From a phage: a stretch of DNA of 64,000 nucleotides. The number at the start of each line of letters is the position of its first letter. Within the stretch, counting starts at the first letter, position 1. Positions 1 through 12,958 of the stretch are shown here, piece after piece. Location: the NCBI GenBank assembly GCA_029945195.1, contig GCA_029945195.1_4117.1. One strand, 5' to 3'. Position numbers and translations under genes: made by a program. The notes beneath the pieces are model-generated. The model searched no databases and was not told the origin of the DNA. It was given only the letters and a program-made list of their open reading frames with translations.

Positions 1-38
1 CCGTATTAAAAAGATCGCAGTACTTGAATAAAAAGTAC

Positions 39-66
39 TTGCAAACTAAGTTTAAACGCGTATAAT
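39..66 (+). promoter_or_regulatory. sigma70-type promoter (TTGCAA-16-TATAAT)
   Basis: -35 TTGCAA 39-44, -10 TATAAT 61-66; AGTACT in -35 flank. Confidence 0.6.
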
Positions 67-78
67 ACTTTATATCAG

Positions 79-97
79 GTGGGGAATAGTTCCCCAC
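79..97 (+). promoter_or_regulatory. 5' leader hairpin GTGGGGAA-TAG-TTCCCCAC
   Basis: perfect 8-bp inverted repeat about 13 nt after -10, upstream of SD AAGGAG 104-109. Confidence 0.6.
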
Positions 98-116
98 TAA
101 AGCAAGGAGTAATAAA

Positions 117-347
117 ATGACCACTATGTATATGATCGAATTGAAAGCCGTAAAAGATACTACCACAAATAAAACTACTTACTTACAGCGGATCTGCGGT
201 GTATGGCAACGTATTAGTAAAGTAAAGTACTATAAATTAACATCATATGCCAATCGTTCGGATTCATTCAGTACTGAAATAAAAGGTAATAAAGTACACC
301 AATACGGCACTTATTATTATTATAACCTGGACGCGATTGCAGTATAA
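117..347 (+). CDS. hypothetical early protein (76 aa)
   Basis: ORF track; SD AAGGAG 7 nt upstream; promoter+hairpin cassette. Confidence 0.6.
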   Translation: MTTMYMIELKAVKDTTTNKTTYLQRICGVWQRISKVKYYKLTSYANRSDSFSTEIKGNKVHQYGTYYYYNLDAIAV

Positions 348-377
348 GTAGTTTACAAATCTTTACAATTGCCAGTA

Positions 378-406
378 TTGACTTATTTTGTCAGTACTGG
401 CATAAT
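378..406 (+). promoter_or_regulatory. promoter TTGACT-17-CATAAT driving short noncoding unit
   Basis: -35 378-383, -10 401-406, CCAGTACTGG palindrome in spacer; conserved motif TAGCCCATAGGGTGCG at 429-444 downstream. Confidence 0.5.
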
Positions 407-521
407 GTATTCATTGGCAGATAAGCCGTAGCCCATAGGGTGCGGAAGTGTATCTATAGAAAAAGTAGTTTAGTACAGTTACAATTGTGCACCCGGTGGG
501 TTAGCTGTTGTCATGGGGTAT

Positions 522-550
522 ATTATACCAGTACTGGATAGTGCTGTCAA
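522..550 (-). promoter_or_regulatory. minus-strand promoter TTGACA-17-TATAAT convergent with 378-406
   Basis: minus-strand -35 at 545-550, -10 at 522-527; minus-strand copy of conserved motif at 488-505. Confidence 0.5.
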
Positions 551-595
551 TACCTTTTTACTATTCAGTACTGAAAACTATTTGATAAAAAGTAC

Positions 596-623
596 TTGCA
601 AACTATGTTTAAAAGCGTATAAT
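596..623 (+). promoter_or_regulatory. sigma70-type promoter (TTGCAA-16-TATAAT)
   Basis: -35 596-601, -10 618-623. Confidence 0.55.
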
Positions 624-630
624 GTTTTAC

Positions 631-705
631 ATCAGGACGGGGAACGAAATAAGTAACTTCCCGTTAAGTAGCCCAGGAGTAAGGCACACGAAAAACTCCC
701 CTGAT
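631..705 (+). ncRNA. conserved ~75-nt structured leader element, copy 1
   Basis: closed by ATCAGG/CCTGAT stem, internal hairpin ACGGGGAA..TTCCCGT; near-identical copy at 9669-9741 with the same flanking promoters. Confidence 0.4.
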
Positions 706-713
706 AAAATAGT

Positions 714-741
714 TTGACAATTGTTTTTAAAAGCGTATAAT
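714..741 (+). promoter_or_regulatory. sigma70-type promoter (TTGACA-16-TATAAT)
   Basis: -35 714-719, -10 736-741. Confidence 0.6.
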
Positions 742-773
742 ACTTACATCAACTACTGAATGAGGGTTACAAA

Positions 774-1385
774 ATGAAAACTATCACTACTACTACTTTC
801 GTTATGGATTTTTCTGAATTGAACGCAGAACAAAAAACGTCAGCTATCGAACTGGTTCGGGAACGTGAAAAAAACTCAAACGACAATTATTTTTCTGAAA
901 GTGAAATTGAATACTATAAAGAAACAGTACTACCGGAATATGGCATTAATGACGCTGAAATACAATTCAGTGGTTTTTGGTCCCAGGGTGACGGTGCATC
1001 AATCAGTACTGACCACGTTGACGCAGTGAAGTTTTTACGCAAGGTTAGAGCGTTAACTAAGTATCGCTCAATCCGTCACCTGCTGAATGAAGATGAATTA
1101 TCTATGAGGGTACAGCGTTCTCAATCCCGCTACTCACACGAAAACACTGTAAGCGGGTACATTGAATCGGGGTACACTGATTTAACAGCAAAACAGGAAG
1201 CGTTAGCCAATGAGCTTGAGGAATTGCTTACTGTTACTATTCGTGAATTATCTCGCAAGTTGTACCGTGATTTAGAGAATGCATATGAGGATCAATTCAC
1301 TACTGAGAACATCACGGCACTGATCGAGGGTAACGAGTATCAATTCAATGTTATTGATGGCGTAGTAGAATCAATCGCATATTAA
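774..1385 (+). CDS. hypothetical protein (203 aa)
   Basis: ORF track; SD GAGGG upstream; promoter 714-741. Confidence 0.65.
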   Translation: MKTITTTTFVMDFSELNAEQKTSAIELVREREKNSNDNYFSESEIEYYKETVLPEYGINDAEIQFSGFWSQGDGASISTDHVDAVKFLRKVRALTKYRSIRHLLNEDELSMRVQRSQSRYSHENTVSGYIESGYTDLTAKQEALANELEELLTVTIRELSRKLYRDLENAYEDQFTTENITALIEGNEYQFNVIDGVVESIAY

Positions 1386-1440
1386 TTTAGTACTGAGATA
1401 ATGGCGGGGAATGGTTCCCGCCTTTACTGAGGATTATCTA

Positions 1441-1647
1441 ATGAGTGATTTAATCGAACGTATCAAAGAGCTTGAAGAAAAAGAATTACAGTTAATCGGA
1501 TTGCGTAATAAAGTTTATTCAGAGCTTGGAGGCTTCATACAGGCTTGGGATAGTGGTGATCCTGATGCTTTACCTGCTAACCGCCAGGCGATGATCAATG
1601 ATGTGAGAAGTGTCTTTGATTATGTTTTAAAAAGTACTGGACACTAA
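1441..1647 (+). CDS. hypothetical protein (68 aa)
   Basis: track ORF 1411-1647 trimmed to ATG 1441: SD GAGGA 1428-1432; upstream in-frame ATG lies in hairpin 1403-1422. Confidence 0.5.
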   Translation: MSDLIERIKELEEKELQLIGLRNKVYSELGGFIQAWDSGDPDALPANRQAMINDVRSVFDYVLKSTGH

Positions 1648-1717
1648 GCAATAAAGGCGTATAATACTTTATATCGAGAGCGGGAATAGTTCCCGCTACT
1701 AATGAGGAATACTACAA

Positions 1718-1882
1718 ATGAATACTTTTACCTTCGCTCAATTGAACGCCCTGGATGTATTGTCTGATGCTTTGCGGGATGCAACTGAAAGCGGTTTATT
1801 TGACAATGTTGACATTCACCCTGATGTAATTAATAATTTTTGTGATGCTATCGCAGAAGTACTGGAAGATCTAAAAAAATAA
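1718..1882 (+). CDS. hypothetical small protein (54 aa, not in track)
   Basis: hand-translated; -10 TATAAT 1660-1665, hairpin 1679-1697, SD GAGGA 1704-1708. Confidence 0.5.
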   Translation: MNTFTFAQLNALDVLSDALRDATESGLFDNVDIHPDVINNFCDAIAEVLEDLKK

Positions 1883-1892
1883 TAGAAAGTAC

Positions 1893-1920
1893 TTGCAATT
1901 AGTTTTTAGTACTGTATAAT
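1893..1920 (+). promoter_or_regulatory. sigma70-type promoter (TTGCAA-16-TATAAT)
   Basis: -35 1893-1898, -10 1915-1920; AGTACTG immediately before -10. Confidence 0.6.
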
Positions 1921-1932
1921 AGTTTACATAGA

Positions 1933-1952
1933 GGGGAGAAATGGTTCTCCCT
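1933..1952 (+). promoter_or_regulatory. 5' leader hairpin GGGAGAA-ATGG-TTCTCCC
   Basis: inverted repeat between -10 and SD. Confidence 0.55.
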
Positions 1953-1970
1953 GGTAATGAGGAAAATAAA

Positions 1971-2192
1971 ATGGCTAATATCACTACTCTTTCTCAACTG
2001 GAAGCACTGGTTAAATCTATGCGGGAACATGCCGACAATATCGGCGTAAAAGATCCAGCCGTTTGCTTCTGCGACGAAATGAATGATGATACACTGGTAA
2101 TAGCAGAAGTACAAGATATTTCTAACTATTCATCGCGTTACACTGGCGGCGTAGCAAATAAAGGTGACTTCTGTTTATACCTTACCAAATAA
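1971..2192 (+). CDS. hypothetical protein (73 aa)
   Basis: track ORF 1941-2192 trimmed to ATG 1971 (SD GAGGA 1959-1963); upstream ATG sits in hairpin loop. Confidence 0.55.
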   Translation: MANITTLSQLEALVKSMREHADNIGVKDPAVCFCDEMNDDTLVIAEVQDISNYSSRYTGGVANKGDFCLYLTK

Positions 2193-2197
2193 CAACG

Positions 2198-2227
2198 CGG
2201 GGAGATAATAACTCCCCGTTACTTTTT
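2198..2227. terminator. rho-independent terminator-like hairpin (possibly bidirectional)
   Basis: CGGGGAG/CTCCCCG stem, then TTACTTTTT; also 3' of the minus-strand short unit. Confidence 0.5.
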
Positions 2228-2298
2228 CAGTACTGAATCATTTAATAGACGGATCTATGCACCCTGTGGGTTAGTGACTGTATCGTCTTTATGTAGTA

Positions 2299-2327
2299 AT
2301 TATGCCAGTACTGGATGCAGTTGTCAA
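2299..2327 (-). promoter_or_regulatory. minus-strand promoter TTGACA-17-CATAAT driving short noncoding unit
   Basis: minus -35 at 2322-2327, -10 at 2299-2304; conserved motif copy (minus) at 2258-2274. Confidence 0.5.
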
Positions 2328-2360
2328 CAATTATTTTTCAAATACTTTTTATTAAAATAC

Positions 2361-2388
2361 TTGCTATTAGTTTTTAAACGCGTATAAT
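2361..2388 (+). promoter_or_regulatory. sigma70-type promoter (TTGCTA-16-TATAAT)
   Basis: -35 2361-2366, -10 2383-2388; hairpin 2398-2416 follows. Confidence 0.55.
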
Positions 2389-2436
2389 GTTTTGCATAGG
2401 GGGAGCGGTTCCCCCTGGTAACTAAGGAATAAGAAA

Positions 2437-2673
2437 ATGCTTGAACAAATCAAATCAACGTCTGCTAATGTAACGGGAACGGTATCACACTTTATTGGTG
2501 ATGAATCGCGGGGCGTTCCCTATTGTGCTGTACATGTAAACACTGAGGGTAACTACTGGTTTACGGTTTACGGTTCATATTCATTTGGACGGCCAGGGCA
2601 TCAAAAAATTCTGGATAAAGTACAACCAACGGGTAAAAATATCACTGCCGAAATGTTTTATAAAAAATCATAA
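2437..2673 (+). CDS. hypothetical protein (78 aa)
   Basis: ORF track; SD AAGGA; promoter+hairpin cassette. Confidence 0.6.
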   Translation: MLEQIKSTSANVTGTVSHFIGDESRGVPYCAVHVNTEGNYWFTVYGSYSFGRPGHQKILDKVQPTGKNITAEMFYKKS

Positions 2674-2757
2674 AGTACTTGCAATTAGTTTTTAGTACTG
2701 TACAATATTTTACATCGCACGGGGGAGCGGTTCCCCCTGGTAACTAAGGATAATCAA

Positions 2758-3057
2758 ATGAAAATTGCAATCATCGCCCTGGCTTTATCTGTTTCCTCTT
2801 TCGCTGTTAACGCGTCGTTAGATGTACCTAGTGAAAAATTCATTCAGTGTACTGTTGCGATGACAGATGAAAGTACTGGCGAGATTGTTTTAAAGGATTT
2901 AGAGATCCAGCCAGAAGCATTTAAAAGCGGCCCGTTCCATGAAGAAGACGAAAAAGGTAGCACGACAATTTATTACGATGTAAGTACTAAGCGTGGATCG
3001 GTCACGGTTATGGATACTGAGAAAGTAACGCACACCGGAGTAATTAACTGTTTATAA
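2758..3057 (+). CDS. small secreted/periplasmic protein (99 aa)
   Basis: N-terminus MKIAIIALALSVSSFAVNAS is signal-peptide-like; SD AAGGA; promoter+hairpin upstream. Confidence 0.6.
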   Translation: MKIAIIALALSVSSFAVNASLDVPSEKFIQCTVAMTDESTGEIVLKDLEIQPEAFKSGPFHEEDEKGSTTIYYDVSTKRGSVTVMDTEKVTHTGVINCL

Positions 3058-3074
3058 TATAGTACTGAATCACT

Positions 3075-3103
3075 AGCCCACCTTAAACAGTGGGCTTTTT
3101 TGT
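3075..3103 (+). terminator. rho-independent terminator
   Basis: AGCCCAC-loop-GTGGGCT then TTTTTTG; exact duplicate at 3810-3837. Confidence 0.7.
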
Positions 3104-3305
3104 TTTTGTATTATCGTAGTACTGCATACTTTAAAAATAGTTTTAAAATAGTAGTTGACATTACCACAAAAAGGCGTAGAATGTATTACATCAAGACGGG
3201 GAGCACTAAGTAGACCGCCAGTAAGTCGAACGAAAAACTGGACACGTCGATAAAACTTTGATACACTAATAAACGTAAACTAAACTTTAATTGAGGATTT
3301 ATAAA

Positions 3306-3788
3306 ATGGCTAATGTAAAATCATTCCTGAAAGCACTGATTTCAAACGATACTGTTATTGCTGCTGAATTGTTGGCTGACCTGGATAACGATACCATGAA
3401 AGCAGTACGCAACAATTTTAACATTGCGTACAGTGAAGCTAAAGAACTGCAAGCCAAAAAGGTAGCAGAACTGGAAGAACAGAAAAAAGCCCGTGAAGCC
3501 GAACTGCAAGCAACAATCGAAAGTATCCAGGCGGCGGTGGCTGGATTGGATCTGGAAGTAGTTGTAGAAATGGCACATAAAGCCCTGGCGGTTAAGTATG
3601 GTGAAGATAAGCCAGAATCTAAACCTAAAAAATGGATTCAAGAACGTGTTACTGTAGTACTTGATAACGGGGAAGAACATATGATTCCTGTACGCGGTAA
3701 CTGCATTGCGGTAGTACTGGACGCTATCAAAGAAAGCGGTATGACTCGCGAGGAATGGATCGAAGCTCATCGCAAAGTTGAAGCATAA
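3306..3788 (+). CDS. hypothetical charged, helix-rich protein (160 aa)
   Basis: track ORF 3291-3788 trimmed to ATG 3306 (SD GAGGA); K/E/A-rich. Confidence 0.55.
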   Translation: MANVKSFLKALISNDTVIAAELLADLDNDTMKAVRNNFNIAYSEAKELQAKKVAELEEQKKAREAELQATIESIQAAVAGLDLEVVVEMAHKALAVKYGEDKPESKPKKWIQERVTVVLDNGEEHMIPVRGNCIAVVLDAIKESGMTREEWIEAHRKVEA

Positions 3789-3809
3789 CAATTAAAGTAC
3801 TGAATCACT

Positions 3810-3837
3810 AGCCCACCTTAAACAGTGGGCTTTTTTG
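3810..3837 (+). terminator. rho-independent terminator
   Basis: same AGCCCACCTTAAACAGTGGGCTTTTTT as 3075-3103. Confidence 0.7.
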
Positions 3838-3855
3838 TGTCTGTAGTATTCCAGT

Positions 3856-3955
3856 CCACCAGCACCGCCTAGAATCGATTCTAACGCATTAAACTGATTA
3901 TCTGATACATCGCCCTAGCTGGTGGCGTTAAGGTCGTTAGAATGCGATTGAGAGC
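3856..3955. repeat. interleaved inverted repeats containing Chi and its complement
   Basis: CCACCAGC 3856-3863 vs GCTGGTGG 3918-3925; ...AATCGATTCTAACGCATT 3874-3890 vs CGTTAGAATGCGATTGAG 3935-3952. Confidence 0.5.
3918..3925 (+). other. Chi site GCTGGTGG
   Basis: exact E. coli Chi octamer, intergenic. Confidence 0.6.
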
Positions 3956-4073
3956 GTTTAAATTATTTTGCAAAAAGTAATAAAAAGTACTTGCACGATT
4001 AAGAGATTAGCGTATAATGTTTTACATCGAGAGGGGGAAACGGTTCTCCTTCCAAATCAAAGGAATCAAAACA

Positions 4074-4301
4074 ATGGCTATTATCATTACTCGCGTATCT
4101 GGTACTACTGGCAACGAACAAGTAGTTGCAGTCATTACGAACAAGGCAGGTGCGGAATTGCAAAATGCAATGAATACCTGGGCCGTTAATGAGTTCGGTC
4201 AGTGGGCAAGTGTAGCATACATTGAAACCTATCAAGTGCCGACCATTAGTTTAACGGATCTTGGTGTGGAACGTATCCTTTGCCTGGATGAATTAAATTA
4301 A
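4074..4301 (+). CDS. hypothetical protein (75 aa)
   Basis: track ORF 4017-4301 trimmed to ATG 4074 (SD AAAGGA); MAII N-terminus shared with 4388 and 7178 genes. Confidence 0.55.
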   Translation: MAIIITRVSGTTGNEQVVAVITNKAGAELQNAMNTWAVNEFGQWASVAYIETYQVPTISLTDLGVERILCLDELN

Positions 4302-4387
4302 AAAAAGTACTTGCAAAGTAAATCGAATAAAGTATAATACATTACATCAAGGGGAGAAATGATTCTCCCCACTACAAGGAAACTAAA

Positions 4388-4600
4388 ATGGCTATCATTA
4401 CTAAAATCAAAGTTAACAAGACTATCGTTAAACTGGCAGAAGTGAAAGAAGGTTATAAAGTATCTTGGTGCGGTATGTATCGGACGTTCGCAGATATAGA
4501 TGATGCGATCAATTATTACAGTGACACGGTTAAAAACTTTGTTCGTGCTGATGTGGTTATGGCAGTGGCAACATATAAAGCAGCGAAAGAAAGTAAGTAA
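4388..4600 (+). CDS. hypothetical protein (70 aa)
   Basis: ORF track; promoter + hairpin 4351-4370 + SD AAGGA. Confidence 0.6.
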   Translation: MAIITKIKVNKTIVKLAEVKEGYKVSWCGMYRTFADIDDAINYYSDTVKNFVRADVVMAVATYKAAKESK

Positions 4601-4691
4601 AAATATTATCACAGTACTATTGACATAGTTTGATAGTACTGGCATAATAGATTTTATCAAGACGACACATATTAATTTAAGGAATACTAAA

Positions 4692-5015
4692 ATGGCTAAA
4701 ACTATCATCAACACCGTTTCCCTGGCTGCAATCCATGCAATCAATGTTGACGGTAAACGTTGGACTGATTCATATGGCAATACTTATCATTCTTGTCATG
4801 TAAGCGTTGAACTGGATAACGGCTTGAATGATCTGGCGGTTGAATCATTTACTTATGGCTATGAGGATGCATATCAACAAACGGCGGTATCACTCTTAAA
4901 GGAATCAGTAGACGGGCTTGATACTGTTGAAACCTCCCTCTATCGTTTGTGCAATGATCTTAATATCCCGTTGCATTGTACTGTACAGAATGTTAAACGC
5001 AAAAAAGATCTTTAA
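4692..5015 (+). CDS. hypothetical protein (107 aa), paralog of 10461-10784
   Basis: shares RWTDSxGNTYHSC..FTYGY..RKKD with 10461 ORF; promoter ATTGACA..CATAAT upstream. Confidence 0.65.
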   Translation: MAKTIINTVSLAAIHAINVDGKRWTDSYGNTYHSCHVSVELDNGLNDLAVESFTYGYEDAYQQTAVSLLKESVDGLDTVETSLYRLCNDLNIPLHCTVQNVKRKKDL

Positions 5016-5095
5016 TTAGCTTTACTTTATGCAGATACTTTGATATAGTGTCTGCATAGGAGAAAGAAATTAAATCAACTTAAGAGGATAGTAAA

Positions 5096-5365
5096 ATGAA
5101 AAATATCAGTACTTTAATCGATGCAGGTACACATGTTCGTCGGTCTATGGTTGCAACCAGTTCTACAAAACAAGTACCAAGCGGTTATCTTGTATTTGTG
5201 CACGATGGAAAACTCCTGGAACGTTCAATCAATTTTGATGTTAAAAACAATTGCCGTTTTATTATCTTTCGCCGTGAACAATATAAAATTGATTTGCCAG
5301 CGAAGCCCATTAGCGGGGCGTACAACGTGCAATCATTGTTTGAGCGTCAACCATACACCTATTGA
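5096..5365 (+). CDS. hypothetical protein (89 aa)
   Basis: ORF track; SD AGAGGA 8 nt upstream. Confidence 0.5.
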   Translation: MKNISTLIDAGTHVRRSMVATSSTKQVPSGYLVFVHDGKLLERSINFDVKNNCRFIIFRREQYKIDLPAKPISGAYNVQSLFERQPYTY

Positions 5366-5416
5366 TCAAATCATCGTCAGTGGTCGATTTAGGCCGCTTA
5401 TATTGGGGATTATACC

Positions 5417-5785
5417 ATGAACGTTAATCAAGTACTGAATGAGATCGAAAGCATCATTAAACCGATGAAGCGTACTGATGCTATGTTAACACCGGAAGAA
5501 TGCCGCCTTTATGAGCGTTACAGCGTCGAACAAGTCCAGGCAATGGCTAGTATCCTTCCGGTTAGTAGTACTGCTAAAGGTGGCCCAGGTTTAACCGTAC
5601 AGGATAAAATCGATCTCCTTAAGCTCAATGGCTATGTAGTTGATGTCGATAAAGAAAAAGTAATGGTATATGATAGTAGTATTGAGCAAGACTATTATAA
5701 CTATTGCATGATTGAAAATGATCCTATTGATTCTATCATTGAAAATATGGTTAACAAAGCATTAAAAGATTTAGATTTAGTTTGA
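5417..5785 (+). CDS. hypothetical protein (122 aa)
   Basis: ORF track. Confidence 0.55.
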   Translation: MNVNQVLNEIESIIKPMKRTDAMLTPEECRLYERYSVEQVQAMASILPVSSTAKGGPGLTVQDKIDLLKLNGYVVDVDKEKVMVYDSSIEQDYYNYCMIENDPIDSIIENMVNKALKDLDLV

Positions 5786-5859
5786 CAGTACTGTAAAAAG
5801 GCGTATAATGTTTTACATAGAGGGGGGAAATGGTTCTCCCCAATAACAGGAGATACAAA

Positions 5860-6012
5860 ATGAAACAATACAACGCTCGGTTTGATGTTACTATCGGTAA
5901 CGGCAAAGGTCAATTCTCTTTCAGTACTCGACGCAGTTATACAGAAAACTTCCTGCGTAATTGTGCACTGACCGCCGCACAAATTAAACATTACTTTCAG
6001 GCTAAAAAATGA
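5860..6012 (+). CDS. hypothetical small protein (50 aa)
   Basis: track ORF 5830-6012 trimmed to ATG 5860 (SD AGGAG); hairpin about 5820-5842 upstream. Confidence 0.5.
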   Translation: MKQYNARFDVTIGNGKGQFSFSTRRSYTENFLRNCALTAAQIKHYFQAKK

Positions 6013-6098
6013 AATCATTAGCTTATTACAGTTCGGCCCTGGTCGGTGCATTGATCGCGGCGTTGTTAGTAACCTATCTATTCTTTATGGTGATTTAA
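6009..6098 (+). CDS. small hydrophobic membrane peptide (29 aa, not in track)
   Basis: hand-translated MKSLAYYSSALVGALIAALLVTYLFFMVI; ATGA overlap with upstream gene. Confidence 0.4.
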   Translation: MKSLAYYSSALVGALIAALLVTYLFFMVI

Positions 6099-6233
6099 AT
6101 GAATCCTAACGGTATAGTTTACAGTACTCCTAAAACTAAAGCAGATAAAGCTAAAGCACGTAAAGCGAAAGTACAGGAATACATCAAGCAAGGCATGACA
6201 CGAAAGGCCGCAGTACTTAAAGCTAAAAAATAA
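6099..6233 (+). CDS. small basic peptide (44 aa, not in track)
   Basis: hand-translated, lysine-rich; start abuts upstream stop. Confidence 0.4.
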   Translation: MNPNGIVYSTPKTKADKAKARKAKVQEYIKQGMTRKAAVLKAKK

Positions 6234-6237
6234 ATGA

Positions 6238-6314
6238 AAAAAGTGGTTGACTTCGGTCAGCCATTTTGCTATTATATATTCATTGAGAGATAGCTCACTA
6301 GCCCACAGGGTGCA
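6238..6314 (+). repeat. composite intergenic repeat, copy A
   Basis: hairpin 6238-6267 with embedded TTGACT 6247-6252 and TATTAT 6270-6275; conserved motif CTAGCCCACAGGGTGCA 6298-6314. Confidence 0.6.
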
Positions 6315-6368
6315 GGAGTGTATCTATTGTATAATGTTTGAGTACTGAAAACTATTTTTAAAAAGTAC

Positions 6369-6396
6369 TTGCAAACTATCTCAATAAGCGTATAAT
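6369..6396 (+). promoter_or_regulatory. sigma70-type promoter (TTGCAA-16-TATAAT)
   Basis: -35 6369-6374, -10 6391-6396; hairpin 6410-6428. Confidence 0.6.
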
Positions 6397-6447
6397 GTTT
6401 TACATCGAAAGGGGAAACGGTTTCCCCTGGTAATAAGGAAACAAATC

Positions 6448-6789
6448 ATGACTATCTCAATTGCTCAATCTAACTTTGAAAATGAAATCATCGCCCAGGC
6501 ACTGCGTTTAAATGATGGTCGGGCCGAAATTAATTACGGTTTCAATTCAGGCGGTTGCGAAAAATATCAGTACTTTACAACGGCTGATGGCTGTGTCCTG
6601 GGCATCAATACAGTTATTGTAAACATTCAGAAAATTAATTTCAATGATCCAGACGATAGCCAGTTTTACATTGTAGGCGTAGACGTGAATTATGAGGATG
6701 ATTCACTAACTGATGATCACACTGGCGAGAAGTTAGAAAGTGCATACGGTGAAGATGATTATCAGTCAGTACCGGAAGATTTTGAATAA
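6448..6789 (+). CDS. hypothetical acidic protein (113 aa)
   Basis: ORF track; SD AAGGA; promoter+hairpin cassette. Confidence 0.6.
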   Translation: MTISIAQSNFENEIIAQALRLNDGRAEINYGFNSGGCEKYQYFTTADGCVLGINTVIVNIQKINFNDPDDSQFYIVGVDVNYEDDSLTDDHTGEKLESAYGEDDYQSVPEDFE

Positions 6790-6882
6790 TATTAAAAAAT
6801 AGTTTGACAATAGATTATAGTACTGTATAATAGTTTACATCAAGGGGAGAATAGTTCTCCCCACTAACAGAGAGAAAACAAA

Positions 6883-7095
6883 ATGGCTAATATCTGCACT
6901 GCTCTGAAAAATGCAAAACAAGTTTTATTTTCTGATCACGATCATTTAAACAAGGATATTACTGGCGTTCGGAATATCAAAGATGTAAAAAGTGTTATGG
7001 GTATCTATTGCAATATGAAACGTGTTGGAACGTTCGGCGACAAAGTACTATACCAGGCAGGGGATTACAATTTTACACTGACGATCATTAACTAA
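6883..7095 (+). CDS. hypothetical protein (70 aa)
   Basis: ORF track; hairpin 6844-6862 upstream. Confidence 0.6.
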   Translation: MANICTALKNAKQVLFSDHDHLNKDITGVRNIKDVKSVMGIYCNMKRVGTFGDKVLYQAGDYNFTLTIIN

Positions 7096-7177
7096 AAATA
7101 TTATCACAGTACTATTGACATAGTTTGATAGTACTGACATAATAACTTTTATCAACTACACTACTAAGGAATTAAAA

Positions 7178-7357
7178 ATGGCTATCATCGCAAAAACTGA
7201 AATCATCGGCCTGGATTCTATCATCATGACGTTTGAAGATCAAAAAGGTATGTATGTAGTTTCATATGGTGATTATGTTCGGGAGTATGAAACGGTAGAC
7301 GAAGCCTTTGAAAGTTACATTCGCCAGGTGAATAAAGCATACGACGACTACCGCTAA
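7178..7357 (+). CDS. hypothetical small protein (59 aa, not in track)
   Basis: hand-translated MAIIAKTEIIG...; promoter ATTGACA..CATAAT and SD AAGGA upstream. Confidence 0.5.
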   Translation: MAIIAKTEIIGLDSIIMTFEDQKGMYVVSYGDYVREYETVDEAFESYIRQVNKAYDDYR

Positions 7358-7456
7358 AATATATTACCAGTACTATTAAAGATATTGACAACGTTTGATA
7401 GTACTGTATAATAAGTTTTATAAACAGTAGTTAACTTAACCTAAGAGAGAAACAAA

Positions 7457-7600
7457 ATGATCGCACTGGATTCATTCATCGACGCAGTACTGGCAAAAAC
7501 TGGCGAGGATCTTACCGCAGAACAATACGCGATGATCGAACAATGTCAACAGGACGGTAAATCGGTGAAAGATACTGTTAAGATTATCCGCAAGATGTAA
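7457..7600 (+). CDS. hypothetical small protein (47 aa, not in track)
   Basis: hand-translated; promoter TTGACA..TATAAT and SD AGAGAGA upstream. Confidence 0.45.
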   Translation: MIALDSFIDAVLAKTGEDLTAEQYAMIEQCQQDGKSVKDTVKIIRKM

Positions 7601-7606
7601 GATTAT

Positions 7607-7634
7607 AGCCCACTGGTTAACGCTGGTGGGCTTT
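7607..7634 (+). terminator. terminator-like hairpin containing Chi
   Basis: AGCCCAC/GTGGGCT stem 7607-7613/7626-7632 with Chi 7622-7629 spanning loop and 3' arm; weak T tract. Confidence 0.45.
7622..7629 (+). other. Chi site GCTGGTGG
   Basis: exact octamer. Confidence 0.6.
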
Positions 7635-7699
7635 AATTCATTACCCTATACAATGCCAGTACTAAACCGTTTATCTCGTTAGAATGCGTTACAGGACGT

Positions 7700-7903
7700 T
7701 TGACAATGATTAGCATGAAATCAGTACAAAAACAAATAGAAACATTATCAAAAATTAAACGTAAACAGTACTCCTTAGAATATACAATCAATGGTAACTA
7801 TCATCTAATGAAAGAAAATAATTTTATAGTCATTGATGAATCATTGCAAATCATTAGTATAGTACTGAAAGCATTAATCAATGACAGAAAAAAATTAAAA
7901 TAA
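7700..7903 (+). CDS. hypothetical protein (67 aa)
   Basis: ORF track; AT-rich, no strong SD. Confidence 0.35.
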   Translation: MTMISMKSVQKQIETLSKIKRKQYSLEYTINGNYHLMKENNFIVIDESLQIISIVLKALINDRKKLK

Positions 7904-7907
7904 TCTA

Positions 7908-7977
7908 TTGACAAATTATGCCAGTACTGGCATAATACTTACATCAAGACGAGAACGTCACTAACCCATAGGGTGCA
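7908..7977 (+). promoter_or_regulatory. promoter TTGACA-17-CATAAT plus conserved motif CTAACCCATAGGGTGCA
   Basis: -35 7908-7913, -10 7931-7936, motif 7961-7977. Confidence 0.5.
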
Positions 7978-8234
7978 CAAATGTAACTGTATAATATTGA
8001 TCAAAAAATGATCTGATCAATACTTGTTCAATTTGCGTAAAGTAGTATAATTCTATGCAGTTGGTTAGACGAAAGGTTATGATTAGTAGTGGAAGTGTAT
8101 AAAAATTTTCATGGTGTGGTGTTCCGCACATATGGGGATGAATATGTCGTGTCGTATGGATTGGAAAAAGTAAAAACAAGTAATATACTTGTCGCGTTAC
8201 AGTACTATAGTAATTTTATAATGAGGTTAAAATA

Positions 8235-8492
8235 ATGGCTGTAGGATTCACGAAAGATGGGGCCGAGCAAGACGAGATTAACGCAGTGATTCAGGCCGCT
8301 GTTAACCACGCTAGAACGCAAATTAACGCACAAATAGAATCACTGATACATTGCCTCGACTGCGGCGATAAAATCCCTGAGAATCGCCGCCAGGCAGTTA
8401 AGGGGTGTAAGTACTGCATAACTTGCCAGGAGGATCATGATAGTATTTTTAAACGTCAACCGCGTAATTGTTGGCATAGATCTATGAGATAA
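8235..8492 (+). CDS. TraR/DksA-family C4 zinc-finger protein (85 aa)
   Basis: CLDCGDKIPENRRQAVKGCKYCITCQ matches the CxxC-x17-CxxC TraR/DksA C-terminal zinc finger. Confidence 0.6.
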   Translation: MAVGFTKDGAEQDEINAVIQAAVNHARTQINAQIESLIHCLDCGDKIPENRRQAVKGCKYCITCQEDHDSIFKRQPRNCWHRSMR

Positions 8493-8573
8493 AAAGTATT
8501 GACAGTACTGAAAGATAGTGTATACTGTATTACATCAAGGGGAAACGTCTTCCCCTACTAAGAGGAAATGAAA

Positions 8574-8762
8574 ATGGAAAACTTATCAAGTATTTTAGTA
8601 CAAGATGATTTCGGTAATCCTGGAAGTGCTATCATCGTTCGGGGCAATAAGGCAACGTTTGTTATTGCTGGTGGGCCTGTACAGCGTAGCATTAAAAACA
8701 ATGCAGTTACAATCAATAATGTTCGCTATCGCTTAGATAAAGAATTGATTCATAAACTTTAA
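8574..8762 (+). CDS. hypothetical protein (62 aa)
   Basis: track ORF 8568-8762 trimmed to ATG 8574 (SD AGAGGA 8561-8566); hairpin 8538-8556. Confidence 0.5.
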   Translation: MENLSSILVQDDFGNPGSAIIVRGNKATFVIAGGPVQRSIKNNAVTINNVRYRLDKELIHKL

Positions 8763-8848
8763 AAAAAGTATTTGACAAAGCATCGTAGTACTGTATAATA
8801 GTTTACATGAAGGGGAGAAATGATTCTCCCCACTAAGAGGAAAGAAAC

Positions 8849-9061
8849 ATGCAAGGTCAACTAATCGTTCGTAAATGGTCTGATACTAACGAAAAACCGT
8901 GGGATGTTCAATATATCGGACCAGACGGTGTTTCACGTTATCAACCTGGCGTAACGCATAGTACTGAGCAATATGCCGCCGCTCACCGTGAACGCCTGTT
9001 AGAATCTATGAAACAGGGATTCTGTGAAAAATTCATTCAAGATCATTGGCTGAAAGATTAA
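8849..9061 (+). CDS. hypothetical protein (70 aa)
   Basis: ORF track; promoter + hairpin 8812-8831. Confidence 0.6.
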   Translation: MQGQLIVRKWSDTNEKPWDVQYIGPDGVSRYQPGVTHSTEQYAAAHRERLLESMKQGFCEKFIQDHWLKD

Positions 9062-9080
9062 TATATAAGGAGTACAGCTT

Positions 9081-9173
9081 ATGCAAATGAATCCGATGAT
9101 TGTTGTGTTAGCTGTACTTATGATCATTCATGCCATCGTAGAAGTACTAACACAATCAGGAGTAATACAATGA
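9081..9173 (+). CDS. small hydrophobic membrane peptide (30 aa, not in track)
   Basis: hand-translated MQMNPMIVVLAVLMIIHAIVEVLTQSGVIQ; SD AAGGAG upstream. Confidence 0.45.
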   Translation: MQMNPMIVVLAVLMIIHAIVEVLTQSGVIQ

Positions 9174-9340
9174 TCCAGGTGGAATTATCAGTACTGAAAG
9201 ATCTGTTTTATCGGTTAGGCACTACTGGCGAATACCCTAAAGGGGATACTGCTAAACTATACATTGCATTGGATGTATGGCAACGTAATGAACTGGCTAA
9301 CGCCTGGCGTAAAGGTAAATCAGAGGGGATTGCAGCATGA
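9170..9340 (+). CDS. hypothetical small protein (56 aa, not in track)
   Basis: hand-translated; ATGA overlap with neighbours. Confidence 0.45.
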   Translation: MIQVELSVLKDLFYRLGTTGEYPKGDTAKLYIALDVWQRNELANAWRKGKSEGIAA

Positions 9341-9486
9341 AAGAATTTTTATTCGAAGTAGTGTTCCAGGGCGTAGGAAGTAACCAACTGATACGATCAA
9401 GTGGTTACAATGTTAACCAGGCATGGAATAACATTAAACAAATGTACCCGAACGCTATCACCTATCGCAACCCAAAACAAGTTTAA
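9337..9486 (+). CDS. hypothetical small protein (49 aa, not in track)
   Basis: hand-translated; ATGA overlap. Confidence 0.45.
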   Translation: MKEFLFEVVFQGVGSNQLIRSSGYNVNQAWNNIKQMYPNAITYRNPKQV

Positions 9487-9497
9487 AAAGAATTGAA

Positions 9498-9567
9498 AAA
9501 GGGATTGACTCCGGTCAGTCCCTTTGCTATTATATATTCATTGAAACAATCTAGCCCACAGGGTGCA
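9498..9567 (+). repeat. composite intergenic repeat, copy B
   Basis: hairpin 9498-9525 with embedded TTGACT 9505-9510 and TATTAT 9528-9533; motif CTAGCCCACAGGGTGCA 9551-9567. Confidence 0.6.
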
Positions 9568-9585
9568 TAAATGTATCTATTGTTT

Positions 9586-9593
9586 GCTGGTGG
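9586..9593 (+). other. Chi site GCTGGTGG
   Basis: exact octamer, intergenic. Confidence 0.6.
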
Positions 9594-9633
9594 CTAGTAC
9601 TATCAAGTACTGAAAACTATTTTTAAAAAGTAC

Positions 9634-9661
9634 TTGCATTGTACTTAGAATCAAGTATAAT
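9634..9661 (+). promoter_or_regulatory. sigma70-type promoter (TTGCAT-16-TATAAT)
   Basis: -35 9634-9639, -10 9656-9661. Confidence 0.55.
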
Positions 9662-9668
9662 GTTTTAC

Positions 9669-9741
9669 ATCAGGACGGGGAACGAAATAAGTAACCCCGT
9701 TAAGTAGTCCAGGAGTAAGACATACGAAAACCTCCCCTGAT
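9669..9741 (+). ncRNA. conserved ~75-nt structured leader element, copy 2
   Basis: about 90% identical to 631-705 with the same flanking promoters. Confidence 0.4.
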
Positions 9742-9748
9742 AAAATAG

Positions 9749-9777
9749 TTTGACAATAGAAATTAAACGAGTATAAT
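9749..9777 (+). promoter_or_regulatory. sigma70-type promoter (TTGACA-17-TATAAT)
   Basis: -35 9749-9754, -10 9772-9777. Confidence 0.6.
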
Positions 9778-9807
9778 ACTTACATCAACCACAAAGAGGA
9801 ATACAAA

Positions 9808-10008
9808 ATGAAACATTTTACTTTCGGTGTAGTAGGCTTTACAGTATCCAGCGGCGTTTATAAATCAGAACGCGGTGCTAAAAATGCAGCAAGTCGGGCG
9901 TATGGTTCACAGCGTGACTTACAGGTCGGTTATATTAGTAACATTAATAACATGTTTATTCCTGTTTCACAGCGTAAAGCGGGTAACATGAAATGGGAAA
10001 CAATTTGA
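9808..10008 (+). CDS. hypothetical protein (66 aa)
   Basis: ORF track; SD AGAGGA. Confidence 0.6.
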   Translation: MKHFTFGVVGFTVSSGVYKSERGAKNAASRAYGSQRDLQVGYISNINNMFIPVSQRKAGNMKWETI

Positions 10009-10097
10009 TAAAATAGTTTGACAATAGTTTTTAGTACTGTATAATATTTTACATCAAGTGGGGAATAGTTCCCCACCTAACAAAGAGAGAAATTAAA

Positions 10098-10373
10098 ATG
10101 CGGATTCTACTGACAGCTAACGAAATCGAGCAAGTACTGACTACTAACCTGGAACAATGGAAACGTGATGCAGATATCCAGGCGGTACAATGGCTTAACG
10201 ATAAGTTAACGCCGGATGACTTAAGCAAGATTGTAGATCCTCAATTCTACGAAGATATTCACGACACCGCGTTAAGCGTCGAGGATGTACTTGATAAGCA
10301 CTATATTGATACTGATTTACAGGTTTACGGTCGTAAAAACTTTATCACTATTCACGACATTTACAATACTTAA
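10098..10373 (+). CDS. hypothetical acidic protein (91 aa)
   Basis: ORF track; hairpin 10059-10077. Confidence 0.6.
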   Translation: MRILLTANEIEQVLTTNLEQWKRDADIQAVQWLNDKLTPDDLSKIVDPQFYEDIHDTALSVEDVLDKHYIDTDLQVYGRKNFITIHDIYNT

Positions 10374-10460
10374 GTATTGACAAAGTATCTTAGTACTGTA
10401 TAATAGTTTACATCAAGGCAGGGGAATGGTTCCCCTCCTAACTAAAAGAGAGAAATTAAA

Positions 10461-10784
10461 ATGGCTATGATCCTTACCCAGAAAGTAGAAATGAAAATTG
10501 TAACTTCCTTTGACATTAAAGTTAATCGGTGGACTGATAGCCACGGCAATACTTACCACTCATGCTACGTGTCTGCATTGATTGGTGACCGCTGGGAAGA
10601 CCTGGGACACGAAACATTTACTTACGGTTACGGCACACAAGGCGAGTACACTGGTTTGGAAATCATTAAGGAAACTGTAATAGGTTTCAACCCGAAAGAG
10701 AAAGTACTACACAGAATTGAGAAAGAGATCAACAAAGAAATTACAGTTCGATACTACGATGTAAAACGTAAGAAAGACATGTAA
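10461..10784 (+). CDS. hypothetical protein (107 aa), paralog of 4692-5015
   Basis: shared RWTDSHGNTYHSC / FTYGY / KRKKD motifs; hairpin 10420-10436. Confidence 0.65.
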   Translation: MAMILTQKVEMKIVTSFDIKVNRWTDSHGNTYHSCYVSALIGDRWEDLGHETFTYGYGTQGEYTGLEIIKETVIGFNPKEKVLHRIEKEINKEITVRYYDVKRKKDM

Positions 10785-10883
10785 TAGAATCCATTTAAAG
10801 TACTATTTGACATTGCCCAGATAGTACTTTATAATAGACTCTAACTTGTAGTACTAATTAACTTAACTAATAGGATGTACACC

Positions 10884-11279
10884 ATGATTACTAAATTCTT
10901 CGCTACCCGTGAACAAGCTCGCATCGTTGCCCGTGAAGAAGGTGAAACATTTAAAGACATGGGCAAAGATGCACCGAAAGGACAACGCTGGGCGGTACAG
11001 TTCAAAGAGATCTCTGATATTGTGAATTCACCTGAGCCTGTACTTACAGCAGCAGAACTAAAGCAAGCTCAAGAACTGGCTGAAGTACTGAACGCTCAAG
11101 ATGACTTTTTGAAAGGTTCTGATATTGAAGTTACAGTTAACGCAAATGCATGGACTCACGCGGATCACCTGGCAAACCTTAAGCGTCCAAGTGAACTGAT
11201 TCGTAACCAGAAAGAGATCCGTCATGACCGTAAAGGAAACCGTGTAACAGTATACAGTAAACGCCGCCAGGTTATCTAA
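10884..11279 (+). CDS. hypothetical protein (131 aa)
   Basis: track ORF 10875-11279; second ATG 10884 better spaced from AGGA. Confidence 0.55.
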   Translation: MITKFFATREQARIVAREEGETFKDMGKDAPKGQRWAVQFKEISDIVNSPEPVLTAAELKQAQELAEVLNAQDDFLKGSDIEVTVNANAWTHADHLANLKRPSELIRNQKEIRHDRKGNRVTVYSKRRQVI

Positions 11280-11302
11280 TAACTTTGCAGTACTAACAAC
11301 AC

Positions 11303-11327
11303 GGCGGGAACTATTCCCGCCTTTTTT
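11303..11327 (+). terminator. rho-independent terminator
   Basis: GGCGGGAA-CTA-TTCCCGCC then TTTTTT. Confidence 0.7.
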
Positions 11328-11341
11328 ATAGGATAAACAAA

Positions 11342-11596
11342 ATGATTAAGGTTCAACTATCAAACGATAATGTATTACGGGTACACTATAAAGCCCCACA
11401 GAGAATCATCACAAAGGCCGTACAGCTTGCTAATGAGTTTATTAATGGTAGTCTATTGCCTAGGAAGTTAAGCAACGGGAAACTACGTGTAATCGACGTA
11501 GACACTAACAATAGAATAGTGATCGAGAGTACTGGAAAAATTAATCTATATGAACACCAACAATACAATAAAAAAATAAAACTAATATCACGTTGA
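11342..11596 (+). CDS. hypothetical protein (84 aa)
   Basis: ORF track; SD AGGA. Confidence 0.55.
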   Translation: MIKVQLSNDNVLRVHYKAPQRIITKAVQLANEFINGSLLPRKLSNGKLRVIDVDTNNRIVIESTGKINLYEHQQYNKKIKLISR

Positions 11597-11621
11597 CAGT
11601 ACTCAAATGTTTTAGTATTAT
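11593..11621 (+). promoter_or_regulatory. promoter TTGACA-17-TATTAT
   Basis: TTGACAGTACTCAAATGTTTTAGTA block duplicated at 11874-11902. Confidence 0.5.
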
Positions 11622-11654
11622 GTATCTATACCAACACAGAGAGAGAGAAACAAA

Positions 11655-11873
11655 ATGAAATTATCTAAAATCGAAAAGAAAACTATTGATGAAGCAGTGA
11701 AGCACGGTTATACCTTTCGTAATGATTCACACTTCACTAGTTTTCAACAGGGAAACCGTACCATCAAAAAACTCATTGATAAAGGTTTACTCACTAAGGT
11801 TGATAACGGGAACGGTGTAGAATATCAACCGACAGAAGACGCATTATCACTAAAGAAATATTCTATTATCTAA
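11655..11873 (+). CDS. hypothetical protein (72 aa)
   Basis: ORF track. Confidence 0.55.
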   Translation: MKLSKIEKKTIDEAVKHGYTFRNDSHFTSFQQGNRTIKKLIDKGLLTKVDNGNGVEYQPTEDALSLKKYSII

Positions 11874-11902
11874 TTGACAGTACTCAAATGTTTTAGTACT
11901 AT
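11874..11902 (+). promoter_or_regulatory. promoter TTGACA-17-TACTAT (duplicate of 11593-11621)
   Basis: near-identical 30-nt block. Confidence 0.5.
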
Positions 11903-11930
11903 GTACGCATACCAACACGGGGAAAACAAA

Positions 11931-12173
11931 ATGATTACTTTAGAAAAACGTATCAAAGAGACTACAACGCTGGTGGAACTGTTAACCGTTCTTAAATGCC
12001 GGGTAACTCCATTCAGTACACCGGACTTTATCAACATGGTGGACGTTAACGGTCGATATCGTATTGCGGTCGAACAAGGTACGGCAAAAGTATTCAGTAC
12101 TAAAAATACGCGTGAAGTATTCCACGCAGTTCAAGTAAAAAAAGTAGTTGCCATTGATAGTAAAGTACTGTAA
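11931..12173 (+). CDS. hypothetical protein (80 aa)
   Basis: track ORF 11874-12173 trimmed to ATG 11931 (SD GGGGAAAA). Confidence 0.5.
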   Translation: MITLEKRIKETTTLVELLTVLKCRVTPFSTPDFINMVDVNGRYRIAVEQGTAKVFSTKNTREVFHAVQVKKVVAIDSKVL

Positions 12174-12204
12174 TATAGTTTCATTAACTCAAGGAGTCAA
12201 CACA

Positions 12205-12789: not shown

Positions 12790-12800
12790 AAAAGATTAAA

Positions 12801-12875
12801 AAAGGGATTGACTCCAGTCAGTCCCTTTGCTATTATATATTCATTGAGAGATAACTCACTGACCCATAGGGTGCG
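12801..12875 (+). repeat. composite intergenic repeat, copy C
   Basis: hairpin 12801-12828 with embedded TTGACT 12808-12813 and TATTAT 12831-12836; motif CTGACCCATAGGGTGCG 12859-12875. Confidence 0.6.
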
Positions 12876-12930
12876 GAAGTGTATCTATTATATAAGTATT
12901 CAGTACTGAAAACTATTTTATAAAAAGTAC

Positions 12931-12958
12931 TTGCAAACTATCTCAATGAGCGTATAAT
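12931..12958 (+). promoter_or_regulatory. sigma70-type promoter (TTGCAA-16-TATAAT)
   Basis: -35 12931-12936, -10 12953-12958. Confidence 0.6.

Follow-up and report, generated by a model that had tools for sequence, protein, structure and literature searches.

The DNA analysed here, referred to as the window, is a 64,000-nucleotide (nt) stretch of phage sequence (contig GCA_029945195.1_4117.1), the first 2.5 kilobases (kb) of which share 90-98% identity with Asteriusvirus jumbo coliphages (PBECO4, G17, phAPEC6, 121Q and others). Its subject is the locus at 378-550, where two predicted promoters on opposite strands face each other and a short conserved motif stands in inverted orientation behind each of them. 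An initial annotation of the window had described this arrangement, and both the sequence and a promoter scan agreed with the promoter coordinates it gave. Each promoter together with the candidate RNA element behind it is termed a unit; the rightward one is U1 and the leftward one U2. The features of the locus are as follows.

370-402, plus strand: palindrome TGCCAGTATTGAC-TTATTTT-GTCAGTACTGGCA, an inverted repeat that is 92% complementary and encloses the -35 box of U1
378-406, plus strand: U1 promoter, with TTGACT, a 17-nt spacer, TGn and CATAAT; predicted start at A413 in 'CAT'
413-461, plus strand: U1 candidate RNA element, covariance-model match of 43 bits, E = 4e-10
462-470, no strand: AT-rich centre between U1 and U2, the tip of a 69-nt imperfect palindrome at 432-500
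471-515, minus strand: U2 candidate RNA element, of a short class without a real first hairpin (P1); predicted start near 514-515
522-550, minus strand: U2 promoter, with TTGACA, a 17-nt spacer, TGn and TATAAT; back to back with a gene-type promoter at 596-623

The sequences at 378-406 (plus) and 550-522 (minus) are strong predicted sigma70-type promoters with an extended -10 element. The former has TTGACT at 378-383, T398 and G399 within its spacer and CATAAT at 401-406, matching the consensus at 10 of 12 positions plus TGn; the latter has TTGACA at 550-545 and TATAAT at 527-522, matching at 12 of 12, again with TGn. The facing -10 boxes are 116 base pairs (bp) apart. Weaker promoter-like matches were found by the promoter scan at close to the chance level (17 versus 10.2 expected in 3 kb), and the argument developed below thus rests on conservation and repetition and not on the scan. 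In an alignment of eight orthologous genomes the U1 promoter was unchanged, and in the orthologs the U2 promoter retained its -35 box with either TATAAT or CATAAT as the -10 box. The motif itself, TAGCCCATAGGGTGCG, lies at 429-444 on the plus strand, 22 nt past the plus-strand -10 box, and its inverted copy, GCTAACCCACCGGGTGCA, at 505-488 on the minus strand, 16 nt past the other. A pattern search with the 16-mer, allowing up to three mismatches, returned seven matches in the window against 0.09 expected; adding the minus-strand copy at 488-505 brings the total to eight.

Past each promoter the predicted transcript can be drawn as a series of short structures. In U1, hairpin P1 would pair 416-418 with 425-427 (GGC/GCC), plus U415-G428, around the loop AGATAA, and is followed by the linker TAG; the second hairpin, P2, would consist of G431-U441 plus CCC 432-434 paired with GGG 438-440 around ATA, followed by UGC (441-443), a conserved U at 449 and the tail GTATCTAT at 450-457. 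U2 begins with the leader AUGACAACAGCUAA, continues with a P2 made of A501-U491 plus CCC 500-498 paired with GGG 494-492 around ACC, and ends with UGC (491-489) and the tail CAATTGTAACTGTAC. In the genomes A4, 121Q and TH47, P1 of U1 is swapped for ATTG-AAACGAA-CAAT and the hairpin still forms, and in the EJP2 and WPEC3 orthologs U2 gains a P1 hairpin, GAC-GAGAAA-GTC, by way of 7 extra nt. The two units form an inverted repeat with arms at 429-463 and 469-503 that are 71% complementary, and the inverted symmetry of the locus is that of two members of one family placed tail to tail.

The region between the promoters is, as read from its sequence, non-coding, as had been stated in the initial annotation. 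Only two open reading frames (ORFs) occur there, one of 33 amino acids (440-541) and one of 47 (513-656), and neither has a Shine-Dalgarno sequence. Insertions and deletions of 7, 3 and 1 nt among the eight orthologous genomes break the frames of all mini-ORFs annotated here. The ORF at 513-656 is lost in EJP2 and WPEC3, where TAG follows straight after ATG, and is frame-shifted elsewhere; it also overlaps two promoters. A further mini-ORF, GTG-TAT-CTA-TAG at 449-460 with GGAG upstream, was dismissed, as its start codon is not conserved across copies. Annotations across 440-717 conflict between deposited genomes (121Q gp270, A4_267, WPEC3 CDS063-065), and these mini-ORF calls are likely spurious.

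It had been proposed that the facing promoters form a sense/antisense pair, or a type I toxin-antitoxin-like pair, particular to this locus. Convergent promoters 116 bp apart would give overlapping complementary transcripts, and the ORF at 513-656 is hydrophobic in its N-terminal half. Since neither unit has a canonical terminator of its own and none lies between the promoters, the transcripts, if both promoters fire, would overlap over up to ~100 nt (413-515) and be fully complementary there, as the proposal predicts. A toxin-antitoxin pair was nevertheless rejected because no conserved ORF is present: the small ORFs are not maintained in the ortholog alignment, and the mini-ORF annotations differ between genomes besides. 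The notion of a one-off antisense pair fared no better, since the same cassette occurs singly six more times in the window and the pair is one arrangement of a multicopy element. We give a locus-specific pair of either kind next to no credence.

The other members of the family were located with a covariance model built from seven copies. It recovered all eight units of the window, every one of them within the first 15.2 kb, and no credible unit was found by it between 16 and 64 kb. The six units outside the locus are listed here.

2198-2327, minus strand: U3, a predicted stand-alone small-RNA gene, with promoter at 2327-2299 and element at 2290-2241 (31.5 bits)
6240-6331, plus strand: U4, composite terminator-promoter at 6240-6275, element at 6282-6331 (60.6 bits)
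7908-7994, plus strand: U5, promoter at 7908-7936, element at 7946-7994 (26.3 bits)
9498-9584, plus strand: U6, composite terminator-promoter at 9498-9533, element at 9540-9584 (39.1 bits)
12801-12892, plus strand: U7, composite terminator-promoter at 12801-12836, element at 12843-12892 (67 bits)
15063-15149, plus strand: U8, composite terminator-promoter at 15063-15098, element at 15105-15149 (31.5 bits)

All eight units lie behind a promoter with a 17-nt spacer and TGn, with the motif 16-29 nt downstream. Two promoter classes could be distinguished in the terminal-repeat part of the window (1-17000, see below): nearly all of the strong gene promoters have a spacer of 16 nt and lack TG, gene promoters as a rule also carrying TATAAT and the upstream element AAAAAGTAC, and the class with the 17-nt spacer and TGn comprises the eight unit promoters plus three gene promoters (4620, 7115 and 15222). 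Extended -10 promoters, being less dependent on the -35 box, might, as a speculation, stay active after a phage anti-sigma factor appears. In U4, U6, U7 and U8 the -35 box is part of the upstream gene's terminator hairpin (AAAGGGATTGACTCCGGTCAGTCCCTTT-GCTATTAT), and intrinsic terminators were scored within these promoters at 6240-6267, 9498-9525, 12801-12828 and 15063-15090. In such composite elements the GC-rich terminator hairpin holds the TTGAC of the next promoter and the T-tract serves as its spacer, a design conserved in GAP32, CBB and metagenomic relatives. The palindrome at 370-402 is analogous to these promoter-embedded hairpins of the other co-directional units.

Across the collected copies a common plan emerged, consisting of the promoter, a 'CAT' start (at the A), hairpin P1, a CUAR-like linker, the segment R-CCC-AYA-GGG-U-GC, and the tail U-S-U-R-U-C-U-R-U. 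Units of a long class have 25-29 nt between the -10 box and CCC and a clear P1; a short class has 20-22 nt there and a weak P1 or none. P1 remains paired through ~15 unrelated stems, among them GGC/GCC, GAG/CTC, GACG/CGTC, AGACA/TGTCT, GGAG/CTCC, AGCA/TGCT, GCCA/TGGC and ACCAC/GTGGT (a table drawn up without fitting to any model), and its loops are purine-rich with AA at the end. In the model alignment, which is fitted to the model and hence biased towards structure, all four P1 pairs covary (AU, UA, GC, CG) and are 92% paired, 121 of the 123 cells of the whole structure in which both sides changed fall in these four pairs, none of 500 shuffles reaches the observed values, and slid controls collapse. 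The unfitted table and the hairpin swaps between orthologs agree with these counts. In P2 the stem is invariant save for its closing pair (A-U and G-U, with 34 copies each) and for a compensatory CCU/AGG change seen in two independent copies; a second scan of IMG/VR in which the P2 stem was left free returned CCC..GGG in every promoter-linked copy. The U ~9 nt past P2 is ~92% conserved and often followed by G. As the G-U pairs and the A/G alternation suit only the strand transcribed from the adjacent promoter, the constraint acts on a folded single strand of the transcribed polarity, most simply the RNA. Three additional structures were considered and set aside, since each is found in subsets of copies and is not general: a closing AGATA/TATCT stem, pseudoknot pairing of the P1 loop with the tail, and a UNCG-looped third hairpin (ATAGA-TCCG-TCTAT).

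The family is spread over Rak2-like phages. A pattern scan of IMG/VR found the motif in RaK2, GAP32, CBB, 121Q and several metagenomic contigs (354-366 kb); with the pattern relaxed, 63 distinct sequence copies linked to a promoter were obtained, and the covariance model gave 83 good matches from 20 sources. The hosts of unit-bearing phages are E. coli, Klebsiella, Cronobacter and Pectobacterium. A core of at least 12 nt and the tail are invariant across phages whose flanking proteins are 34-45% identical. When the extended motif was searched for in 596 gigabases of bacterial and archaeal genomes, only two matches were obtained, both without a promoter, which is at or below the ~9 expected by chance, and an origin of the motif in the host was rejected on this result. 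On this comparative evidence the units are a clade-wide, strongly constrained family of RNA elements that has not been described before.

In records with known physical ends the locus lies ~3.1-3.7 kb from the left end, and in vB_Ec-M-J it lies at 3438-3697, inside the annotated direct terminal repeat (1-21525); the window from 1 to ~16.5 kb thus corresponds to the terminal repeat. All 11 covariance-model matches in vB_Ec-M-J fall within the repeat. The ORFs in this part of the genome are small and for the most part monocistronic, and every one has a sigma70 promoter and, at its 5' end, a GGGGAA..TTCCCC hairpin; it is probably an early-type, host-takeover region.

The orientation of the units relative to genes was classed by simple rules for 76 units, including 44 co-directional with genes and 29 anti-oriented. 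Among the latter, at least 10 end at an intrinsic terminator no more than ~45 nt past the element and 10 face a convergent unit, and none carries an ORF. U3 is the example in the window: its transcript would run from its own promoter at 2327 to a terminator at 2198, ~100 nt without an ORF, passing CAGTACTG at 2235-2228 on the way to this terminator, which spans 2218-2198 and is bidirectional; the fold energy obtained for U3 was -24.2 kcal/mol (z = -2.3). By the same features U3 and at least 10 anti-oriented units in relatives qualify as stand-alone small-RNA genes, as U1 and U2 themselves do not for want of a canonical terminator, and because a promoter, ~100 nt without an ORF and a terminator leave no product but RNA, the RNA is taken to be the product. 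For the co-directional units the next feature is a gene promoter in 19 cases, as for U4 (gene promoter at 6369), a convergent unit in 10 and a terminator in three; in 12 nothing was detected.

The position of the co-directional units suggests an alternative in which the unit is a cis-acting leader resembling the put sites of phage HK022. Nascent P1-P2 RNA bound to its own polymerase would make that polymerase resist pausing and termination, and transcripts from unit promoters would read through terminal-repeat terminators as delayed-early RNA while those from ordinary gene promoters stop. The putL element is a promoter-proximal nascent RNA with two stem-loops and a conserved downstream position, and the element of the units likewise starts at +3 and has two hairpins (PMC9378689). 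Co-directional units stand exactly after a terminator with the -35 box within its hairpin, so that only polymerases starting there would carry the RNA, and, having no terminator of their own, they feed downstream genes. The consensus pause site has G at -10, Y at -1 and G at +1, and the conserved U past P2, with the G that often follows, fits it. Against this, 29 of the 76 units are anti-oriented and run into a nearby terminator or another unit, where an anti-terminating RNA would defeat their terminators and yield antisense RNA, and a convergent pair of anti-terminated polymerases has no obvious use. The element is also smaller, at ~50 nt with stems of 3-5 bp compared with ~70-74 nt and two long stems in put, and no sequence relationship to put is apparent, though none was tested for. 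We regard a put-like function as the main rival, albeit an unlikely one.

A further alternative is that the units are neutral mobile repeats of the promoter-early stem-loop (PeSL) type, spread by recombination, with the conserved sequence hitch-hiking and the RNA without function. The terminal repeat is indeed full of repeated cassettes of promoter and hairpin flanking small ORFs, and whole hairpins have been swapped between near-identical genomes; such swaps between 95%-identical orthologs indicate frequent recombination between copies. Neutrality does not sit well with a core and tail that stay invariant despite the divergence of the flanking proteins, with P1 pairing kept through its many stems, or with anti-oriented copies that are always capped, all of which argue for purifying selection. 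We consider neutral spread quite improbable.

Most units stand singly. Convergent pairs recur as a module. Eleven were present in the collected material, from E. coli phages, Cronobacter phage GAP32, Pectobacterium phage CBB and metagenomic phages. The distance between the starts of the two CCC segments is 68 nt in seven pairs (the window, G17, two in GAP32, CBB and two metagenomic phages), 79 nt in two and 86 nt in two, and the distance between promoters varies from 115 to 127 nt. The 68-nt pairs can be aligned and look like one old module. With the consensus present in both units, the stretch running from CCC through GGG forms an imperfect palindrome of 69-87 nt, the outer 12-16 bp of which are the motif paired with the anti-motif. 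In RNA folding of the pairs the palindrome alone gave -23 to -41 kcal/mol, and the whole overlap -29 to -50 kcal/mol with z = -4.4 to -7.3.

It could also be envisaged that it is the DNA, or transcription as such, that matters: the motif could be an operator or roadblock for a phage protein behind a special class of promoter, the convergent promoters could form a transcriptional insulator, or the unit could be a site of R-loop replication priming, where a G-rich non-template segment (GGGTGCGGAG) would seed a primer as in T4-type origins. Those origins comprise a promoter and a downstream unwinding element, and a transcript kept there in a persistent R-loop primes leading-strand synthesis. An invariant CCC..GGGTGC core with almost no covariation would suit sequence-specific recognition, the G clusters are notable in an AT-rich genome, and the units keep to the terminal repeat, with the anti-oriented ones facing upstream gene ends. 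On the other hand, P1 covariation, the even split of the closing pair between A-U and G-U (34:34) and the CCU/AGG changes point to a folded single strand of defined polarity, and stand-alone copies with terminators imply a discrete RNA. For an operator it would be unusual that the distance from promoter to motif changes by 9 nt from one length class to the other, and the spacing within pairs (68, 79 and 86 nt, or 6.5, 7.5 and 8.2 turns) has no helical phasing. A replication origin had been raised in the initial annotation as well; nothing specific favours it, and ~11 copies per repeat in both orientations, several ending at terminators, would be an implausible set of origins. Taken together, we hold a DNA-level function to be improbable.

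The reading we favour, with somewhat better than even confidence, is that 378-550 carries two tail-to-tail copies of a clade-specific cassette belonging to a multicopy family of early small RNAs. The E. coli sigma70 RNA polymerase would start at the extended -10 promoter, at the A of 'CAT', and produce in order P1, the CUAR linker, the hairpin R-CCC-AYA-GGG-U with its GC, and the tail U-S-U-R-U-C-U-R-U; this would take place at ~11 copies per direct terminal repeat in the early host-takeover region. The RNAs may then work in trans, binding a conserved protein as its ligand or decoy by means of the invariant hairpin and tail. At a pair, polymerases from both promoters would transcribe into each other, and each transcript could fold on itself into a hairpin (69 nt at this locus) with motif and anti-motif at its base. 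Collision, stalling at this long hairpin, or cleavage of double-stranded RNA by RNase III may limit and process both products. Beyond that, the palindrome or terminator within the promoter of its partner would lie in the path of the leftward transcript. Going one step further, this ~11-copy class of structured early RNA in Rak2-like terminal repeats could engage conserved host or phage expression machinery, as an abundant decoy or a polymerase-bound modifier, with the convergent pairs as a self-limiting module that generates double-stranded RNA; we put this forward tentatively, at somewhat less than an even chance.

Several points weigh against the small-RNA reading. The searched literature contained no expression data for Rak2-like phages, and transcription and the 5' and 3' ends are predicted. 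No partner protein or target was identified, and phage mRNAs show no specific enrichment of complementary 8-mers. Folded one sequence at a time, the units do not significantly exceed shuffles in stability, so that the structure draws its support from comparison alone, and the pair counts carry the bias of a fitted alignment noted above. Most of the co-directional units (~44) lack a terminator and continue into the promoter and gene that follow, and a discrete small RNA would there need processing. Finally, U2 of the window is a weak family member by the covariance model (15 bits, E = 0.19). An antisense target within the phage was tried and rejected: 80 complementary 8-mers were found against 47 +/- 9.5 expected, but the excess is due to AT-rich words and none involves the invariant core.

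Jumbo phages of the Rak2 group are therapy candidates in which more than 80% of the genes, and all of the regulation, are uncharacterised. What is gained here is a clade-wide, putatively non-coding element mapped to exact coordinates, a covariance model able to detect it and a distinct promoter class, by which an anonymous 400-bp 'intergenic' stretch becomes a testable RNA gene family and spurious ORF calls can be corrected in dozens of deposited genomes. Were the RNA to bind RNA polymerase or an RNA-binding protein of the host, this would be a new early mode of host takeover. Should the more far-reaching idea of a class of RNAs engaging the expression machinery be true, it would be the first RNA-based host-takeover device described for the Rak2-like clade. 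The unit could also serve synthetic biology as a compact regulatory part.

The surroundings of the units have several further features. The neighbouring genes at 117-347 and 774-1385 match only PHROGs of unknown function, and in most of the related phages that were checked the 774-1385 protein has a homolog no more than ~1 kb from a unit. In two places (596-712 and 9637-9750), each just past a unit and just before another promoter and gene, there is a copy of a second element that has a promoter and no ORF. It consists of a gene-type promoter and a predicted RNA of ~83 nt (CAUCAGGACGGGGAAC...CUCCCCUGAU), the first 28 nt of which are identical between the copies, and its predicted fold has two hairpins within an AUCAGG/CCUGAU closing stem (z = -2.4 and -1.0). 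The region of vB_Ec-M-J that lies to the left of the window (1-1760) has no annotated gene; it contains short tandem-like repeats (AGTAATCAAA at 60-100, GGCTAGATGG and GGCTAAACGG at 780-920), an inverted pair of Chi sites at 588-607 and three more unit matches (1082 minus, 1232 plus and 1298 minus).

Chi sites (GCTGGTGG) are ~20-fold enriched in the window, with nine against 0.43 expected. Eight of these are in the terminal-repeat part (3856-15183), seven of them on the plus strand, and the ninth is at 55897; two stand directly past units, at 9586 (after U6) and at 15176. In vB_Ec-M-J there are 11 against 0.28 expected, all inside the terminal repeat, and in other Rak2-like phages Chi or its complement is found within the spacer of unit promoters. 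This enrichment suggests that the genome ends are protected from RecBCD or that recombination is stimulated. The palindrome CAGTACTG occurs 53 times in the whole window against 0.75 expected (for example at 392, 529, 566, 2228, 2306 and 12901). It is found in promoter spacers (AGTACTGTATAAT, CCAGTACTGGCATAAT), upstream of -35 boxes (AAAAGTACTTGCAA) and just past the conserved tail of units, and also within coding sequence throughout 16-64 kb, and looks like a genome-wide DNA signal.

Known RNA families gave no counterpart. A scan of 1-3000 against Rfam 15 (E up to 10) produced only chance-level matches, the best scoring 21 bits where the threshold is 45 bits, and no match fell on the strand that carries a unit; two RT-6 matches (17-18 bits against a threshold of 46.7 bits) fell on shared promoter sequence and were discounted as chance. 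No tRNA or tmRNA was detected by ARAGORN. In the full-text literature searched for the motif and for Rak2-like transcription, the only mention was of RpoD-like promoters in the early region and terminal repeat of CBB. An RNA anti-CRISPR, a solitary mimic of a host CRISPR repeat in sequence and structure, was rejected, as by eye there was no convincing match to type I-E/I-F repeats and the extended motif is absent from the 596 gigabases of bacterial and archaeal genomes searched; CsrA sites (GGA), sigma-dependent pause sites (a -10-like element), DnaA boxes and the RfaH ops element likewise gave no consistent match by eye. A lambda nut site has boxA (CGCTCTTA) before a boxB hairpin with a 5-bp stem and a GNRA-like pentaloop, whereas P2 has 3 to 4 bp and an AYA triloop with no boxA consensus upstream, and a lambda-type nut site was thus rejected too.

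Type I toxin-antitoxin loci such as par of pAD1 are convergent antisense RNA pairs in which an antisense RNA overlaps a small conserved toxin ORF with its ribosome-binding site, and the pair studied here shares with par convergent promoters ~100 nt apart and overlapping complementary RNAs as predicted. It differs in having no toxin ORF, in drawing both partners from one RNA family and in having no shared bidirectional terminator between them. PeSL cassettes, reportedly described in T4-type phages by Arbiol et al. in 2010, are closer. Like the units they are repeated intergenic sigma70 early promoters with a stem-loop or terminator, flanking small ORFs in the plastic early region of a T4-related phage, and copies of either kind are likely to recombine with one another. 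The units have the make-up of a PeSL-type cassette with, in addition, an invariant transcribed motif that is outside the PeSL definition; PeSLs precede genes and have not been described with such a motif, as ORF-less units running from promoter to terminator, or as convergent pairs of fixed spacing.

The put RNAs of HK022 (putL and putR) act in cis as antiterminators, binding the zinc-binding domain of the RNA polymerase beta' subunit and conferring read-through of the co-directional terminators downstream of them. With put the units share a place in a phage early region, the host sigma70 RNA polymerase, a start-proximal position, two stem-loops and a conserved downstream position. In contrast, put has long stems and a triple helix, exceeds the unit in size, and occurs twice per genome, always co-directional, whereas the units number ~11 per repeat, with many anti-oriented and terminated and some paired. 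In the Pseudomonas jumbo phage PA5oct, a distant relative, ncRNA001 and ncRNA002 of the terminal repeat are highly transcribed throughout infection (PMC7318152). These non-coding RNAs (ncRNAs) and the units are alike in being ORF-less regions within long terminal repeats, in jumbo phages that rely on the RNA polymerase of the host; the former are 236-451 nt long and single-copy, with promoters not known, and the latter short and multicopy, with predicted promoters of their own, and the covariance model found no unit in the PA5oct terminal repeat. The closest known systems are thus put RNA, the PeSL cassettes and terminal-repeat ncRNAs, each of which resembles the unit in part, and the unit belongs to none of them.

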